Source: Gammaproteobacteria bacterium (GTDB lineage Bacteria; Pseudomonadota; Gammaproteobacteria; UBA4575). From it: 64,000 nucleotides of DNA. Of this stretch, positions 9,546 to 57,233 are shown piece by piece (the stretch's first letter is position 1; the number at the start of each line of letters is the position of its first letter). Location: assembly GCA_965243395.1 (NCBI GenBank), contig CBDEUS010000002.1:224001-288000 (forward strand), written 5' to 3'. Below the pieces are notes generated by a model. It was not told where the DNA came from and did not search any database. It saw only the letters and a list, made by a program, of their open reading frames with translations. The position numbers and the translations under genes were made by a program.

Positions 9546-10154
9546 ATGAGTTCTCAACTGTCAAAAGCACGCTTTTTGCAAAGTGCTTCAGCCAAGCAAG
9601 ATTTCCCTAATGATATCAAGGCTGAAATCGCTTTTTGCGGCCGCTCCAATGCAGGTAAATCCAGTGCAATTAACACCCTATGCCGACAAAAAAATCTTGC
9701 TCGCACCAGCAAAACACCTGGCCGTACCCAATTAATCAATTTTTTCAAACTAGATGGCGATACTTGCCTGGTAGATCTACCAGGCTACGGCTATGCCAAA
9801 GCACCCGCAAAAGTACAGCAAAAATGGCATCGGTTAATGGAAGACTACCTGACGATGCGAGAACCCCTATGTGGTTTAGTGCTGCTTATGGATATTCGCC
9901 ATCCATTGACGGAAATTGACTGGACGATGATTCACTGGACAAACCATTACCAACTACCGCTTTATATCCTGCTTACCAAAGCGGATAAAGTGAATCGAAA
10001 CCATACTACGAAGACCATGACTTTAGTCACTTCAAAATTAGAACAAGAAGGGTTCGATTGTGGGGTCCAAACCTTCTCAGCCACTAAGCAAATTGGACTC
10101 CATCAGGCACAAAACAAGATTGTAGACTGGTTAAATTCAGCTATGACAAGATAA
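9546..10154 (+). CDS. engB: Ribosome biogenesis GTPase YihA/EngB
   Basis: GRSNAGKSS, SKTPGRTQ, DLPGYG, TKADK. Confidence 0.96.
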   Translation: MSSQLSKARFLQSASAKQDFPNDIKAEIAFCGRSNAGKSSAINTLCRQKNLARTSKTPGRTQLINFFKLDGDTCLVDLPGYGYAKAPAKVQQKWHRLMEDYLTMREPLCGLVLLMDIRHPLTEIDWTMIHWTNHYQLPLYILLTKADKVNRNHTTKTMTLVTSKLEQEGFDCGVQTFSATKQIGLHQAQNKIVDWLNSAMTR

Positions 10155-10264
10155 AAAAAGCGCCCCGGTTAGCAAAAACCGGGGCCAAGAATGACTCGGT
10201 TGGGGAGCCCGAGCCTTATTTTAGCCCGCTAAGGGAGGGAAGCGGGTGACGCGAAAAGCGTCAC
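10153..10264 (-). ncRNA. Candidate sRNA (four hairpins, C-rich loops, intrinsic terminator) at the Spot42/ErsA/sX13 locus
   Basis: Minus-strand stems GTGACGC-TTTTC-GCGTCAC, CCCGCT-TCCCTCCCTT-AGCGGG, CTCGG-GCTCCCCAA-CCGAG, GCCCCGGTT..AACCGGGGC followed by T7; GC-rich island in AT-rich spacer; own promoter. Confidence 0.75.
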
Positions 10265-10267
10265 TAG

Positions 10268-10294
10268 TTAGAGGATATTGAGCAGTAAAAGTTC
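10268..10294 (-). promoter_or_regulatory. SigmaE (RpoE/AlgU) promoter of the sRNA
   Basis: Minus strand GAACTT-N16-TCTAA ending a few nt before the first hairpin. Confidence 0.8.
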
Positions 10295-10348
10295 GCAAAA
10301 AACGCTTAAAATATAAACAGTTCTTTGTGTGCGTTAAAATAATGTCGT

Positions 10349-10744
10349 TTAAAAACGCTGCTTTACAGACACGCCATACGCACTCTCATCTTCATCCGGA
10401 AGAGTAAGACCACCTTGATTAGGCTTGCTACGTAAATCATCTAAGCCATCGCCTTGATAGATTTCGAATGAAAATAGGCGATACTCGGGTGTTATGGAGC
10501 CTGAAAAACTACTGCCTTGATTGTTATTTGGCAGTATTAAACGTTGATATAAATTAATAATCCTTTGTTGCTGTGCCATGTCAGGCGTCCAAGCAAAGGG
10601 ATGATCAAATGTATCTGAGTTATCTTCTAATGACGGAAACTCTAGATTTAAATTGGGTTCTAGTGCACTTGCTATTTGTGCGATTGAAGCCATGGAAATA
10701 AACGCGGCAAGTAGAATTGCTGCAGTAATGATATTCCTTATCAT
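10349..10744 (-). CDS. Hypothetical exported protein
   Basis: AGGA RBS, signal peptide, C-terminal YGVSVKQRF. Confidence 0.7.
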   Translation of the reverse strand: MIRNIITAAILLAAFISMASIAQIASALEPNLNLEFPSLEDNSDTFDHPFAWTPDMAQQQRIINLYQRLILPNNNQGSSFSGSITPEYRLFSFEIYQGDGLDDLRSKPNQGGLTLPDEDESAYGVSVKQRF

Positions 10745-10963: not shown

Positions 10964-13705
10964 TTAATGGGCTTCATCCCAATTCGCACCAACTGCAGCA
11001 TCCACTACGAGTGGAACTGATAGCTTGCCCGCGACTTCCATCTGTTCAACAACATTCTTTTTAATTGAATCTATTGAATCTTCTTTAACTTCAAACACTA
11101 GCTCATCATGTACTTGCATTATCATTTTGCATTCTGTTTGCTTATCTTGCAGGTATTCGTCAATTATGATCATCGCGCGTTTAATAATATCGGCGGCCGT
11201 GCCTTGCATAGGTGCATTGATCGCTGTGCGTTCAGCATATTGTCGTCGCTGAACATTTTTATTATTAATGTCAGGCAAATAGAGTCTTCTGCCAAATAAA
11301 GTTTCTACATAGCCCTGTTCACGTGCTTGTTCCCGAATGTTATCCATATATTTTTTCACTCCTGGATAACGTTCAAAGTACAGACTGACATATTGTTGTG
11401 CATCAGTACGTGTAATACCAAGTTGTTTAGCTAAACCAAATGCCGACATACCATAAATGAGCCCAAAATTAATTGCTTTAGCTGCACGTCTTTGTTCGGC
11501 TTCAACTTCATCTAAATTCAAACCAAACACTTCTGCAGCCGTAGCGCGGTGAATGTCTTCGCCTTGTGCAAATGCTTCACACAATCTTTCATCATTTGAA
11601 AGATGCGCCATAATGCGCAATTCAATTTGTGAATAGTCTGCAGCCAATATTTGATTTCCTTTTTCAGCTACAAATGCCTGGCGCACACGCCTACCCTCTT
11701 CTGTACGTATAGGAATATTTTGTAAATTAGGATCAGAAGATGACAACCGACCGGTAATGGCTACCGCTTGATGGTAAGAAGTATGCACCCGATTTGTTTT
11801 AGAATTTATCAGGCTGGGCAATTTATCTACGTAAGTAGATTTAAGTTTACTCAGCATACGGTGTTCAAGGAGTAGCTTTGGTAAAGGATAGTTTTCTGCA
11901 AGCTCTTGTAACACATCCTCAGCTGTCGATGGCTGTCCTTTAGGTGTTTTGCGTATAACTGGGATGCCTTGTTTTTCAAATAAAATTTCTTGAATTTGCT
12001 TGGGGGAACTCAAGTTAAATTTTTGACCTGCTAATTCAAAAGCTTCTTCCTCGACTTCAATAATGCGTTTACTAAGTTGTTTGCCTTGTTTGTCCAGTTG
12101 CTTAGCATCTAAAAACACTCCGTTTCGCTCAACGTTTGAAAGCACCTTCAACATCGGTAATTCGATGGTTTCGTAAAGCTTCTTTTGTTTCGTTTTTTGT
12201 TGTAATTCTCTCCAAAACTCCTGGTGTAAACGTAACACCATGTCAGCATCTTCAGCTGCATAGTCCAAAGCAACATCAAGGCCAACTCGATCAAACGTAA
12301 TTTGTTTTGCCCCCTTGCCGGCAACATCTTCAAAATGAATATTGGTATGGTCTAAATACTTTTCACACAAAGTATCCAGGTCATGTCGACTGGCTACAGA
12401 ATTACAAACATAAGACTCCAGCATGGTGTCATGTTGTATGCCGTTTAATTCAATCCCATGATTGAGTAAAACGCTGCGATCATATTTCAAATTGTGGCCA
12501 ATTATTTTTGCCTGCTTGTCATTTAATACGGGTTCTAATTGCTTGAGTACTTCGTCACGATCCAACTGCTTAGGGGCACCGGTATAATTATGTGCAAAAG
12601 GCACATAAGCCGCTTCTCCTGGTTTCACTGCAAACGATATGCCGACTACATTGGCTTGCATGTAATCCAAGCTGTCTGTCTCCGTATCAAAAGCGATCAA
12701 ATCTGCTGCATTTAGCTTTTTCAACCAAGCATTGAAGTCTTTCTTTGTCAGAACTAATTGGTATTTCTTTTTAACTGATTTCGTCGTTTCTTCTATTTTT
12801 TCTTCTACAACACTTTCGGATGATTCGATTGATTCATCTTCTTCGCCCATCGCTTTTAACCAAGTTTTAAACTCAAATTCTTTATAGAGTTTTCTTAACG
12901 TAGTGGTTTCTTCAGGCTTTACGGTTAAATCATCAATGCTTGTATCAATTTTCAAATCACAACGAATGGTAGTAAGTTCTTTTGATAAGGGGATTTGATC
13001 TAGATGTGCGCGAAATTTCTCGCCTACTTTGCCTTTTATGGCTTCGGCATTCTCAATCAGTGCATCAAGTGTTTCATATTCATTAAGCCATTTGGCGGCT
13101 GTCTTCGGTCCAACACTTGGCACACCTGGTATATTGTCTGATTTGTCCCCCGTTAGCGCGAGATACTCAATGATTTGGTGCGGTGCTACACCAAATTTTT
13201 CCACGACACCCTCGGCATCCATTTTTACATTAGTCATAGTGTTAACAAGAGTTACATGATCGTTTACAAGCTGCGCCATATCTTTATCACCGGTTGAAAC
13301 TAATACTTCATGTCCTTGTTTAACTGCCTGATCTGCCAAGGTACCAATCACGTCATCGGCTTCAACACCTGCCTCAGAAATAAGAGGGAGTCCTAGCGCG
13401 CGCACCATGTTATGCAATGGTTCAATTTGTACTTGCAAATCATCCGGCATGGGTGGTCGATTTGCTTTGTATTCTTTATATAAATCGTGGCGGAATGTTT
13501 TGCCTTTAGCATCAAAAACAACCCCTATGTACTCTGGTTCTACACTTTTCATTAATCGCTTCAACATATTTACCACTCCATAGATCGCTCCAGTTGGCAT
13601 TCCATTAGAAGTAGAAAGATGCTGTAAATTTGGTACATGAAAAGCTCGATACAAATAAGAAGAGCCATCGACTAAAACCAGAGGCGGTGCAGTTTTTTTA
13701 GGCAT
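10964..13705 (-). CDS. polA: DNA polymerase I
   Basis: LVDGSSYLYRA 5'-3' exonuclease, AFDTET 3'-5' exonuclease, ADYSQIELR, KAINFGLIYG, QVHDE. Confidence 0.99.
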   Translation of the reverse strand: MPKKTAPPLVLVDGSSYLYRAFHVPNLQHLSTSNGMPTGAIYGVVNMLKRLMKSVEPEYIGVVFDAKGKTFRHDLYKEYKANRPPMPDDLQVQIEPLHNMVRALGLPLISEAGVEADDVIGTLADQAVKQGHEVLVSTGDKDMAQLVNDHVTLVNTMTNVKMDAEGVVEKFGVAPHQIIEYLALTGDKSDNIPGVPSVGPKTAAKWLNEYETLDALIENAEAIKGKVGEKFRAHLDQIPLSKELTTIRCDLKIDTSIDDLTVKPEETTTLRKLYKEFEFKTWLKAMGEEDESIESSESVVEEKIEETTKSVKKKYQLVLTKKDFNAWLKKLNAADLIAFDTETDSLDYMQANVVGISFAVKPGEAAYVPFAHNYTGAPKQLDRDEVLKQLEPVLNDKQAKIIGHNLKYDRSVLLNHGIELNGIQHDTMLESYVCNSVASRHDLDTLCEKYLDHTNIHFEDVAGKGAKQITFDRVGLDVALDYAAEDADMVLRLHQEFWRELQQKTKQKKLYETIELPMLKVLSNVERNGVFLDAKQLDKQGKQLSKRIIEVEEEAFELAGQKFNLSSPKQIQEILFEKQGIPVIRKTPKGQPSTAEDVLQELAENYPLPKLLLEHRMLSKLKSTYVDKLPSLINSKTNRVHTSYHQAVAITGRLSSSDPNLQNIPIRTEEGRRVRQAFVAEKGNQILAADYSQIELRIMAHLSNDERLCEAFAQGEDIHRATAAEVFGLNLDEVEAEQRRAAKAINFGLIYGMSAFGLAKQLGITRTDAQQYVSLYFERYPGVKKYMDNIREQAREQGYVETLFGRRLYLPDINNKNVQRRQYAERTAINAPMQGTAADIIKRAMIIIDEYLQDKQTECKMIMQVHDELVFEVKEDSIDSIKKNVVEQMEVAGKLSVPLVVDAAVGANWDEAH

Positions 13706-28079: not shown

Positions 28080-28829
28080 TTATTCGTCTATAGAAACAAA
28101 CTGCTGCAGTTTAGCTCCTACAATCTCACCTAAATTTCCTAAAAATAAAGTACCCATTCCACTTTGGAAACGATTAGCGTCTGTGCTGCCTAAAAACAAT
28201 ACACCCAGTTGATGTTTTTTCTTCAATGCTACCGCTGCTGCTGAGCGAATGGGTTTTTTGGCTTTTTCATTATCAAAAACATTATCAATTTGTCGCTTGG
28301 TAAGAAATGCCACACCACGACGCCGACTAGAGAATAAGTCCTGAATAAGTTTTGATTTTTGTAATGTCCGCTCCATTTCAGAGCAGTTTTTAACACTGGT
28401 ATCTGGCAACAATTCGAACAAACGCAACAGCACTTTTGTTCCTGGAAAATCTGTATGTAGTAGTTCGCATATACCCGCAAGCGATTCATCAAAGCCTTTG
28501 ATGGAAACTAGACCTAAAGTTAATGCATGTAGGCGACGACTTACCCGTTCATTTTCTTTAGCTACAGTGATGAGCTGATGAAGCTTGTGGTCAAGCTCTT
28601 TATTCTTATTTCGAAGTAGTTCTACCTGACGCTCAACCAGTGAAACGGCTTCTCCAGTCTCATGTGGAATAGCGAGTGTTTCAATTAACTCGCCATGGTG
28701 CATAAAAAAATCACTATGCGTTCTCAAATAACGTGCAACTTGCTCACGTGTTAATTTTACCTTCGGTCCGCTTGCAGGTTCACTCGTTGCTATCTTGGCG
28801 GATAATTTAGGCTTGCTCTGTGTCGTCAT
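28080..28829 (-). CDS. DUF484 (YigA-like) protein
   Basis: VARYL..H.DFF, AVSLVERQ, RFQSGMGTLFL. Confidence 0.92.
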   Translation of the reverse strand: MTTQSKPKLSAKIATSEPASGPKVKLTREQVARYLRTHSDFFMHHGELIETLAIPHETGEAVSLVERQVELLRNKNKELDHKLHQLITVAKENERVSRRLHALTLGLVSIKGFDESLAGICELLHTDFPGTKVLLRLFELLPDTSVKNCSEMERTLQKSKLIQDLFSSRRRGVAFLTKRQIDNVFDNEKAKKPIRSAAAVALKKKHQLGVLFLGSTDANRFQSGMGTLFLGNLGEIVGAKLQQFVSIDE

Positions 28830-56657: not shown

Positions 56658-57233
56658 TTATAGATCTCCATCCGTAGACGTATCAGAACTTGGAAGTGGA
56701 ATTCCATAGTCACTGGATGGGTCATTAGATGTATCACTAGGTGGTTCATCCGTTGAAGGAATTTCTGGAGTTGCCGGAGGGGTGTCTGAACTCGCGGCAA
56801 GTTCTTTTGCAAGTAAAGATTCCATTGATTCCATCGCTGGAGGTTCTGCTGGTGTTTCGGCAGGAGTGCTACTAAACGGATTACTTATTTGTTCTTGCTG
56901 AGGTGGTTCGCTTGGTTGACTCGCAAGCTGTCCTTCTGGAGCAGGTTGGTTAAGTTCACGACTGATCTCAGCATGGAGTGCAGCAGCAAGATCATCTTCA
57001 TCAAATGGGAGATCTTCCTCTACTGGTTCAGCTAACGCTGCCTGCATCATTTCTTCGTTAACTAGACCAAGCTCAATTTCACGTAATGCAACGACGGTAG
57101 GTTTATCATTTTCCCATTCAACTAATGGCTCAGTGCCCATAGAAAGTTGACGTGCTCGCTTACTTGCTAACAACACTAATTTAAAGCGGTTTTCTACATG
57201 CTCAAGGCAATCTTCTACCGTAACGCGGGCCAT
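56658..57233 (-). CDS. rpoZ: RNA polymerase omega subunit with long acidic, Pro-rich C-terminal tail
   Basis: [32 protein letters not shown]; 191 aa. Confidence 0.96.

Follow-up and report, generated by a model that had tools for sequence, protein, structure and literature searches.

The window analysed here is a stretch of 64,000 nucleotides (nt; 64 kb) from an uncultured member of the Gammaproteobacteria (contig CBDEUS010000002.1, positions 224,001 to 288,000). Beside its engB gene, on the minus strand at about 10264-10153, lies what the sequence and its conservation identify as a discrete, conserved, non-coding RNA gene with its own conserved promoter motif. We place the RNA in the anti-hemB/ncS04 family, as a divergent branch. 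On balance, we think it probable that the gene encodes a trans-acting small RNA (sRNA) of ~110 nt, transcribed from a promoter of the sigmaE/AlgU type and distantly related to anti-hemB/ncS04, which uses its loops to block G-rich ribosome-binding sites (RBSs). Within that proposal the sigma-factor dependence, the induction by envelope stress, the use of Hfq, the occlusion of RBSs and the targets are all things that we infer.

The gene (minus strand, 10264-10153, ~110 nt) consists of four consecutive hairpins, with the terminator last. Its parts are listed here from the promoter to the 3' end; the seven copies referred to are those of the window and of six related loci (L001-L006).

10289-10294, minus strand: -35 element GAACTT, read in the sequence; invariant in all seven copies
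10268-10272, minus strand: -10 element TCTAA, 16 nt 3' of the -35 element; TCTAA in six of seven copies, TCTAT in L004
10261-10264, minus strand: predicted transcription start, 4-7 nt past the -10 element, at the foot of hairpin 1
10247-10263, minus strand: hairpin 1 (H1), UGACGC-UUUUC-GCGUCA by RNAfold; three of six pairs with compensatory double changes
10225-10246, minus strand: hairpin 2 (H2), stem CCCGCU/AGCGGG; loop UCCCUCCCUU at 10240-10231, anti-Shine-Dalgarno-like, the presumed seed
10216-10224, minus strand: A/U-rich linker CUAAAAUAA, single-stranded by RNAfold; sequence and length vary among relatives
10193-10215, minus strand: hairpin 3 (H3), stem GGCUCGG/CCGAGUC; second C-rich loop GCUCCCCAA at 10208-10200
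10153-10185, minus strand: hairpin 4 (H4), the intrinsic terminator; stem 10185-10162, then GC and U7 at 10159-10153

The predicted start was placed by the usual spacing of sigmaE-type promoters. RNAfold gave the RNA -49.5 kcal/mol against a shuffle mean of -32.6 (z -5.2), and none of 200 shuffles was as stable. The predicted structure was exactly the set of hairpins H1-H4 that can be read from the minus-strand letters (10300-10150), where the arms of H1 appear as GUGACGC/GCGUCAC. H1 runs directly into H2, and no single-stranded stretch in the RNA is longer than the 9-nt linker. The stem of H4 (GCCCCGGUU/AACCGGGGC) has 9 base pairs (bp), seven of them G-C, and was called independently at 10185-10162 by a terminator scan. 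C-rich loops occur in two of the four hairpins (CCCUCCC in H2, CUCCCC in H3). The RNA is 58% G+C, and the surrounding 200-base segments are ~35-48%. Apart from the end of engB, no open reading frame (ORF) of at least 40 amino acids (aa) was found on either strand in 10155-10348, and no AUG was read within the RNA sequence. A preliminary description of this DNA had proposed four minus-strand hairpins with a T7 terminator and two C-rich loops, preceded by a GAACTT-N16-TCTAA promoter; sequence, RNAfold and terminator scan all bear out the hairpins at the coordinates listed above, and the promoter string is present directly upstream and conserved in relatives.

Related loci were collected by a genome scan anchored on EngB, which yielded seven (L001-L007; EngB identity 93-69%), all in metagenome-assembled genomes that carry the label Gammaproteobacteria or Pseudomonadota. 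Six of them (L001-L006) have the RNA and its promoter, on the opposite strand to engB and just beyond its stop codon. The engB stop and the sRNA terminator nearly abut in the copies other than L002, where ~155 nt of extra, unrelated sequence lies between them (L002:5604-5757). A covariance model (R1), built from the window sequence and these six, found one copy each in the same seven of eight sources (92.8-129.9 bits), no second copy in the window or any locus, and no match in L007. Sequence 5' of the -35 element was not alignable among the relatives, and BLASTN of promoter plus RNA against a plasmid collection gave no match.

In an alignment of the seven sequences (A3; four helices, 28 pairs), 98.9% of 190 cells were paired, and sliding the 3' partners by 1-3 columns dropped pairing to 28-42%. 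Sixteen of the 28 pairs never vary, six vary on one side only and stay paired, five have changed on both sides (three in H1 and two in the terminator of L004), and one deviates solely through an unpaired cell. For four of five measures, only 0-1 of 500 column shuffles reached the observed value. RNAalifold independently predicted the same four helices. The structure put forward in the preliminary description, with fold and covariation as its suggested check, is thus upheld both by the z of -5.2 and by compensatory changes at five of 28 pairs across the seven copies.

The conservation is not evenly spread. All six stem pairs of H2 are invariant in every copy, and its loop, with the core UUCCCUCCCUUA, is identical in six of seven, L006 deviating at the 3' edge of the loop only. 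In H3, four pairs are invariant and three vary on one side, kept paired via G-U. A U run of at least six follows the terminator stem in every copy; the linkers drift, as do the loops of H1 and H4. Judged from these comparisons, an invariant H2 stem and a conserved loop core amid drift is the pattern expected for a seed presented by a hairpin.

The alignment also speaks to the strand. Ten G-U cells in A3 would become A-C mismatches on the other strand, U-tails are found on the minus strand only across the copies, and the plus strand folds worse and loses H3; these three findings establish the minus strand as that of the RNA. A plus-strand reading (compare the strand ambiguity of hemB/anti-hemB; Weinberg 2007) was rejected on the same three grounds. 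At L007 (EngB 69% identical), GAACTT-N17-TCTAA lies directly after polA (L007:5560-5682, minus strand), and the sequence CUUACCUCCUUUAG after this promoter motif matches the H2 loop region at 12 of 14 positions. We rejected L007 as an eighth copy, since it has no flanking stems, no clear terminator and a z of -1.0. The RNA may there have decayed or been remodelled into a single-stranded form.

Among Rfam families, anti-hemB (RF02837) came out on top for every one of the seven copies, a significant and consistent match, though below threshold, with E values of 1.2e-7 to 3.6e-4. In a search of the RNA and its surroundings at E<=10, the window copy scored 38.6 bits (E 1.2e-7). The copies in L001-L006 scored 34.1-44.1 bits (E 5.5e-7 to 3.6e-4), and anti-hemB was the only family that they matched at E<=1; L007 gave no match to it. 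The segment aligned to anti-hemB with the highest posterior (mostly 9-*) was H2, and the 81-position model aligned with all three of its helices in L003 and L005, to H2, H3 and the terminator. Weak matches to ncS037 (24.5 bits), suhB/mmgR (18.9 bits), the Betaproteobacteria toxic sRNA (17.7 bits) and Spot_42 (16.7 bits) were set aside as involving only the terminator or C-rich sequence. At gathering thresholds, Rfam returned no match at all in the whole 64-kb window (no tRNA, riboswitch or known sRNA), so standard annotation would leave the RNA unmarked.

RF02837 is the hemB/anti-hemB motif ('Burkholderia RNA 7'), for which Weinberg 2007 suggested a non-coding RNA on the anti-hemB strand (PMC1950547). 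The only characterised member is ncS04 of B. cenocepacia J2315, an RNA of 105 nt detected by Northern blot, which is reported to co-purify with Hfq and whose level is reported as unchanged across the seven conditions tested (PMC5688073, PMC4603805). It is placed between hemB (BCAL0264) and EngB (BCAL0265) in the orientation '<- -> <-' (PMC5688073, Supplementary Table S2). In order, four elements can be read from the printed sequence: a 5' hairpin GCACGC/GCGUGC, a second with stem CCCGC/GCGGG and loop CCUCCUCCCU, a middle hairpin whose loop is U5, and a U7-tailed terminator (PMC5688073). A sigma70-type -10 element, GTATATGAT (score 6.79; profile consensus CGCTATAAT), is given seven bases upstream of the start (PMC4603805, supplementary file 8).

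Compared by way of the Rfam model and our reading of that printed sequence, the two RNAs agree in the stem CCCGC/GCGGG around a loop containing CCUCCCU, which is nearly identical in the window RNA, and in the order of helices (5' hairpin, C-rich hairpin, middle hairpin, U7 terminator). They also agree in size (~110 nt against 105 nt) and in standing tail-to-tail with engB, an arrangement that the window RNA shares with its copies in L001-L006. Since sequence, helix order, size and synteny agree, we regard the RNA as a distant homologue of anti-hemB/ncS04 that falls below the Rfam threshold. The differences are equally plain. Upstream of the window RNA are a 131-aa ORF and polA rather than a divergent hemB; its H3 loop is C-rich (GCUCCCCAA), unlike the U-rich middle loop of the anti-hemB model; it has a sigmaE/AlgU-type promoter motif where ncS04 has the sigma70-type -10; and its host belongs to an uncultured, probably marine lineage of Gammaproteobacteria, not to the Burkholderiales.

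In the promoter motif itself, the -10 core TCTA is invariant in all seven sequences that bear the sRNA, and the spacer between -35 and -10 is exactly 16 nt in each, its sequence being variable. The window motif fits both the AlgU consensus GAACTT-N16/17-TCtgA (PMC10651043) and the rpoE/algU autoregulatory consensus GAACTT-16/17-TCCAAA (PMC4336711). By this resemblance, it would be read by an orthologue of sigmaE/AlgU.

The proposed course of events is as follows: under envelope stress, an extracytoplasmic function (ECF) sigma factor of the RpoE/AlgU group would fire the GAACTT-N16-TCTAA promoter. The transcript would end at the Rho-independent terminator, leaving a U7 tail, the usual Hfq-binding 3' end. 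The H2 loop (UUCCCUCCCUUA), and probably also the CUCCCC loop of H3, would mimic the anti-Shine-Dalgarno tail of 16S rRNA and pair with the G-rich, GGGAGG-like RBSs of selected mRNAs, blocking the initiation of translation. The targets would presumably be envelope proteins that the cell should make less of under envelope stress. Blocking of RBSs by C-rich loops is proposed here by analogy with sX13 of Xanthomonas, the sRNA for which that mechanism has been shown.

Candidate targets were sought by computing the pairing energy of the loops with the start regions of 70 window genes (for the H2 loop, mean -5.1 kcal/mol, standard deviation 3.7). The best pairing of the H2 loop was with a TorF-family porin gene (1765-2454; AAGGGAGGAA, -15.1 kcal/mol), followed by an ammonium transporter gene (64-1296; AGGAGGGAA, -14.9 kcal/mol) and the ORF at 28080-28829 (-13.3 kcal/mol). 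That ORF also gave the best pairing of the H3 loop (-17.0 kcal/mol). The sites in envelope-protein genes are plausible, but we treat the porin, the transporter and the ORF as leads, not as evidence.

The same loops might serve a different end. They could act as a decoy, sequestering a G-rich RNA (an sRNA, or a fragment of tRNA or rRNA) or a protein that binds C-rich loops. An RNA with two C-rich loops on stable stems and very little single-stranded seed elsewhere would suit that role, as would a loop that is conserved far beyond the demand of a few species-specific targets and is common to Burkholderia. We nevertheless consider a decoy quite improbable: no candidate partner for it was found, and the loops lack GGA, the motif bound by CsrA/RsmA-type proteins. 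For mRNA targeting by C-rich loops, sX13 offers a direct precedent, and translational control remains the function that we favour.

The genes around the RNA are those named in the preliminary description.

9546-10154, plus strand: engB/yihA GTPase gene (TIGR03598, 237.8 bits; Pfam MMR_HSR1), convergent with the sRNA gene
10349-10744, minus strand: gene for a 131-aa hypothetical protein, directly upstream of the sRNA on the same strand
10964-13705, minus strand: polA, DNA polymerase I (NF004397, 1240 bits; Pfam domains), upstream of the 131-aa gene

The 131-aa protein had no Pfam or NCBIfam match. It is present at full length in five of the seven loci (44-86% identity) and has 73 homologous clusters, all unnamed or 'hypothetical'; the few with an organism label come from uncultured Gammaproteobacteria or Pseudomonadota. 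By these comparisons the ORF is a real gene restricted to the lineage of the window. By eye, the protein shows an N-terminus like that of a signal peptide and, towards its C-terminus, the conserved motif GDGLDDLR...LPDEDE. The gap from its stop codon to the -35 element of the sRNA is 20-93 nt, and the terminator scan found none between; transcription of the 131-aa gene must run on into the sRNA. The preliminary description was therefore correct that this gene separates the RNA from polA, but the RNA, besides having its own promoter, also lies within the 3' untranslated region (UTR) of the 131-aa gene. In L006 and L007 the upstream gene is a different one, so the RNA is independent of the 131-aa gene.

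On its other side, the U-tail of the sRNA abuts the engB stop codon, with an overlap of at most 2 nt. On the plus strand at 10200-10212, a terminator-like site is scored where GCCTTATTTT comes after the complement of H3; the T-rich run is lost in L005 and L006. The engB mRNA might thus end inside the sRNA gene, antisense to the 3' half of the sRNA. This arrangement invites two further explanations. The first is that the element is no regulator but a structured 3' UTR or bidirectional terminator block between engB and the 131-aa gene, kept for ending and stabilising their transcripts. Its position exactly between convergent genes, with the U-tail against the engB stop codon, and the terminator-like score of the H3 complement with its T-rich run would be accounted for in this way. 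Two conserved C-rich loops and a dedicated, conserved promoter are not needed by a terminator, however; the element persists in L006, where the upstream gene has been replaced; the plus-strand T run after H3 is lost from L005 and L006; and the homologous ncS04 is a discrete RNA for which co-purification with Hfq is reported. We judge a mere terminator block to be distinctly unlikely. The second is that the RNA regulates engB in cis, as an antisense, through terminator read-through or polymerase collision, which would explain why sRNA genes convergent with engB occur in many proteobacteria. The window RNA, E. coli spf, B. cenocepacia ncS04 and the ErsA locus do all stand tail-to-tail with engB/yihA. 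The terminator is strong, however (9 bp, seven G-C, U7), the overlap with engB does not exceed 2 nt, and the targets described for Spot 42, ErsA and sX13 lie elsewhere in the genome (PMC3771888, PMC8575079). Regulation of engB in cis appears very improbable indeed, and we retain the trans-acting sRNA as the better account.

More widely, hemB was absent from the 70 window ORFs, and hemC, hemD, hemX and hemY lie ~26 kb away. Among the window genes are those for an ammonium transporter of the marine subtype and for an Mrp antiporter, from which we take the lineage to be probably marine. Elsewhere in the window, the rpoZ ORF (56658-57233, minus strand) encodes 191 aa, of which the RpoZ profile covers residues 1-59 only; the omega subunit seems to have a C-terminal extension of ~130 aa, or its stop codon is unusually late.

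Several observations weigh against the interpretation that we prefer. None of the seven copies reaches the anti-hemB gathering score of 49.5. The covariation comes from seven related sequences with an effective number of 1.15, which makes the shuffle control weak; on the fifth of its measures (further pair types), 492 of 500 shuffles attained the observed value, compensatory changes are absent from H2 and H3, and L007 keeps the promoter motif without the folded RNA. In the target screen, the same genes rank high for a generic anti-Shine-Dalgarno motif, so the ranking does not discriminate. The remaining points concern the promoter. GAACTT-N15-17-TCTAA occurs once in the 64 kb, with 0.13 expected and at least one occurrence in 13 of 100 shuffles; the string alone is not significant, and the motif carries weight because of its position and its conservation in relatives. 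No rpoE or rseA gene lies within the 64-kb window. The upstream sequence printed for ncS04 (59 nt before its start) has the sigma70-type -10 and no GAACTT (PMC4603805), and sigmaE control is therefore not a family trait.

If these last points are given more weight than we give them, the RNA would be real and related to anti-hemB, but no sigmaE/AlgU orthologue would read its motif; the RNA would be constitutive, or driven by another ECF sigma factor, or produced mainly by processing from the mRNA of the 131-aa gene, and would have no link to envelope stress. Besides the absence of rpoE from the window, the sigma70-type -10 of ncS04 and the lack of any stress response reported for it under the conditions tested argue in this direction, as do the gap of 20-93 nt, free of terminators, between the 131-aa ORF and the RNA, and a sigma70-like site (9/12) at 10337-10310. 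Yet the -35 element, the -10 core and their 16-nt spacing do not vary, and the sequence between and upstream of them drifts; the motif is kept in L006 and L007 despite their different upstream gene; and the sigma70-like site falls in non-conserved sequence. We consider an RNA detached from envelope stress unlikely, and continue to favour transcription from the sigmaE/AlgU-type promoter.

Whether the RNA is new depends on what is compared. The literature found contained no RNA that joins a body of the anti-hemB type to a promoter of the ErsA type and to a second C-rich loop in an uncultured marine lineage of Gammaproteobacteria; neither the hairpin-2 string, in its DNA or RNA form, nor any paper treating ErsA together with sX13 turned up. 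The claim in the preliminary description that the RNA was undescribed is only partly right, because the RNA is, by its sub-threshold match (38.6 bits against 49.5), a divergent branch of anti-hemB/ncS04.

A function for anti-hemB/ncS04 is unreported in those parts of the literature that were available to us. A divergent relative with a conserved sigmaE/AlgU-type motif supplies a concrete hypothesis, namely a member of an envelope-stress regulon that blocks G-rich RBSs. A second consequence concerns detection, since the Rfam threshold misses the branch of anti-hemB found in uncultured, probably marine Gammaproteobacteria. According to a 2026 preprint, anti-hemB is linked to low-salinity isolates and some members are decoupled from hemB; part of that link could be detection bias. 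A larger evolutionary scenario can also be drawn, although we regard it as doubtful: the window RNA, with the body of anti-hemB/ncS04 and the promoter type and slot of ErsA, would form an evolutionary bridge and, if intermediates exist, a single ancient sRNA of envelope stress would be the ancestor of the engB-convergent sRNAs in Beta- and Gammaproteobacteria, its promoter and seed having later been rewired in each lineage. The ancient group would comprise anti-hemB, ErsA and the window RNA, and perhaps sX13 and Spot 42. Were this true, the orphan anti-hemB motif, known since 2007, would gain a physiological role.

The slot adjoining engB has other known occupants, two of which the preliminary description had named correctly: Spot 42 in E. 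coli, by annotation, and ErsA in Pseudomonas, by the literature. In E. coli K-12 the annotated order is polA -> spf -> <- yihA, and the window RNA occupies the same slot in the same orientation. The Spot_42 model (RF00021) gave 16.7 bits on the window RNA (E 0.96; gathering score 80); E. coli spf, the positive control, scored 122.8 bits with it. Homology to Spot 42 was not accepted from the 20.7 bits that R1 scored on spf, since that score was driven by the terminator and left H2 unpaired. The terminator stems are alike, following GCCCC(A/G)G...C(U/C)GGGGCG. In the Spot 42 gene (L008:3915-4008) the terminator reads GCCCCAGU...ACUGGGGCG, close to window 10153-10185 and especially to the L004 variant GCCCCAGCU...AGCUGGGGCG; this likeness could be a trace of common descent or a coincidence between terminators rich in G+C. 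Spot 42 has a CRP-controlled promoter (cited in PMC3771888). A 2026 preprint predicts divergent 'spf homologues' beside yihA in Glaciecola and Pseudoalteromonas, with genes inserted between polA and the RNA.

ErsA of P. aeruginosa likewise lies in the polA-engB interval, where the window has the 131-aa gene inserted between polA and the RNA. It is reported to be regulated by the envelope-stress factor sigma22/AlgU and to pair through a U-rich, unstructured domain II of 34 nt between stem-loops SL1 and SL2 (PMC8575079, PMC13613067, PMC3349714). The promoter motif of the window RNA fits the AlgU consensus and might be used by a sigmaE/AlgU orthologue. The 34-nt U-rich single-stranded domain is absent from the window RNA, ErsA being compared here by its description only, and in that respect the ErsA-like regulation put forward in the preliminary description is not supported as written.

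The polA-linked sRNA of Xanthomonas, sX13, is ~115 nt long, lies downstream of polA, and acts with C-rich 4C/5C apical loops on G-rich motifs in 5' UTRs (PMC3771888). It is described as Hfq-independent and restricted to Xanthomonadaceae, with a hypothetical gene as its downstream neighbour, and its authors raised the question of sRNAs at the polA locus of other bacteria (PMC3771888). With its stable stem-loops, C-rich apical motifs and upstream polA, it is the best functional analogy for the loops of the window RNA, whose loop CCCUCCC nonetheless differs from 4C/5C. The sX13-like architecture of the preliminary description gives way to another relationship: the body of the RNA is closest to anti-hemB/ncS04, since ncS04 shares both the convergent position at engB and the hairpin order. 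Of the Rfam families suggested at the outset, Spot_42 was not significant and none named ErsA or sX13 was listed around the RNA at E<=10 (Rfam 15 was not verified to hold such models); what that scan did return was the sub-threshold match to anti-hemB. Spot 42, ErsA and sX13 thus have no more in common with the window RNA than genomic slot or logic.

The logic proposed here, in which an envelope-stress sigma factor would drive an sRNA against envelope proteins, is that of MicA, RybB, MicL, VrrA and MicV. These are sigmaE-driven sRNAs of enterobacteria and Vibrio that lower the synthesis of envelope proteins and that use 5' single-stranded seeds, not apical C-rich loops; none of the five families matched in the window at the Rfam gathering threshold or around the RNA at E<=10. 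The window RNA is a fifth occupant of the polA/engB locus, with Spot 42, ErsA, sX13 and ncS04, and the first shown here to be similar in both sequence and structure to an occupant from a different class.

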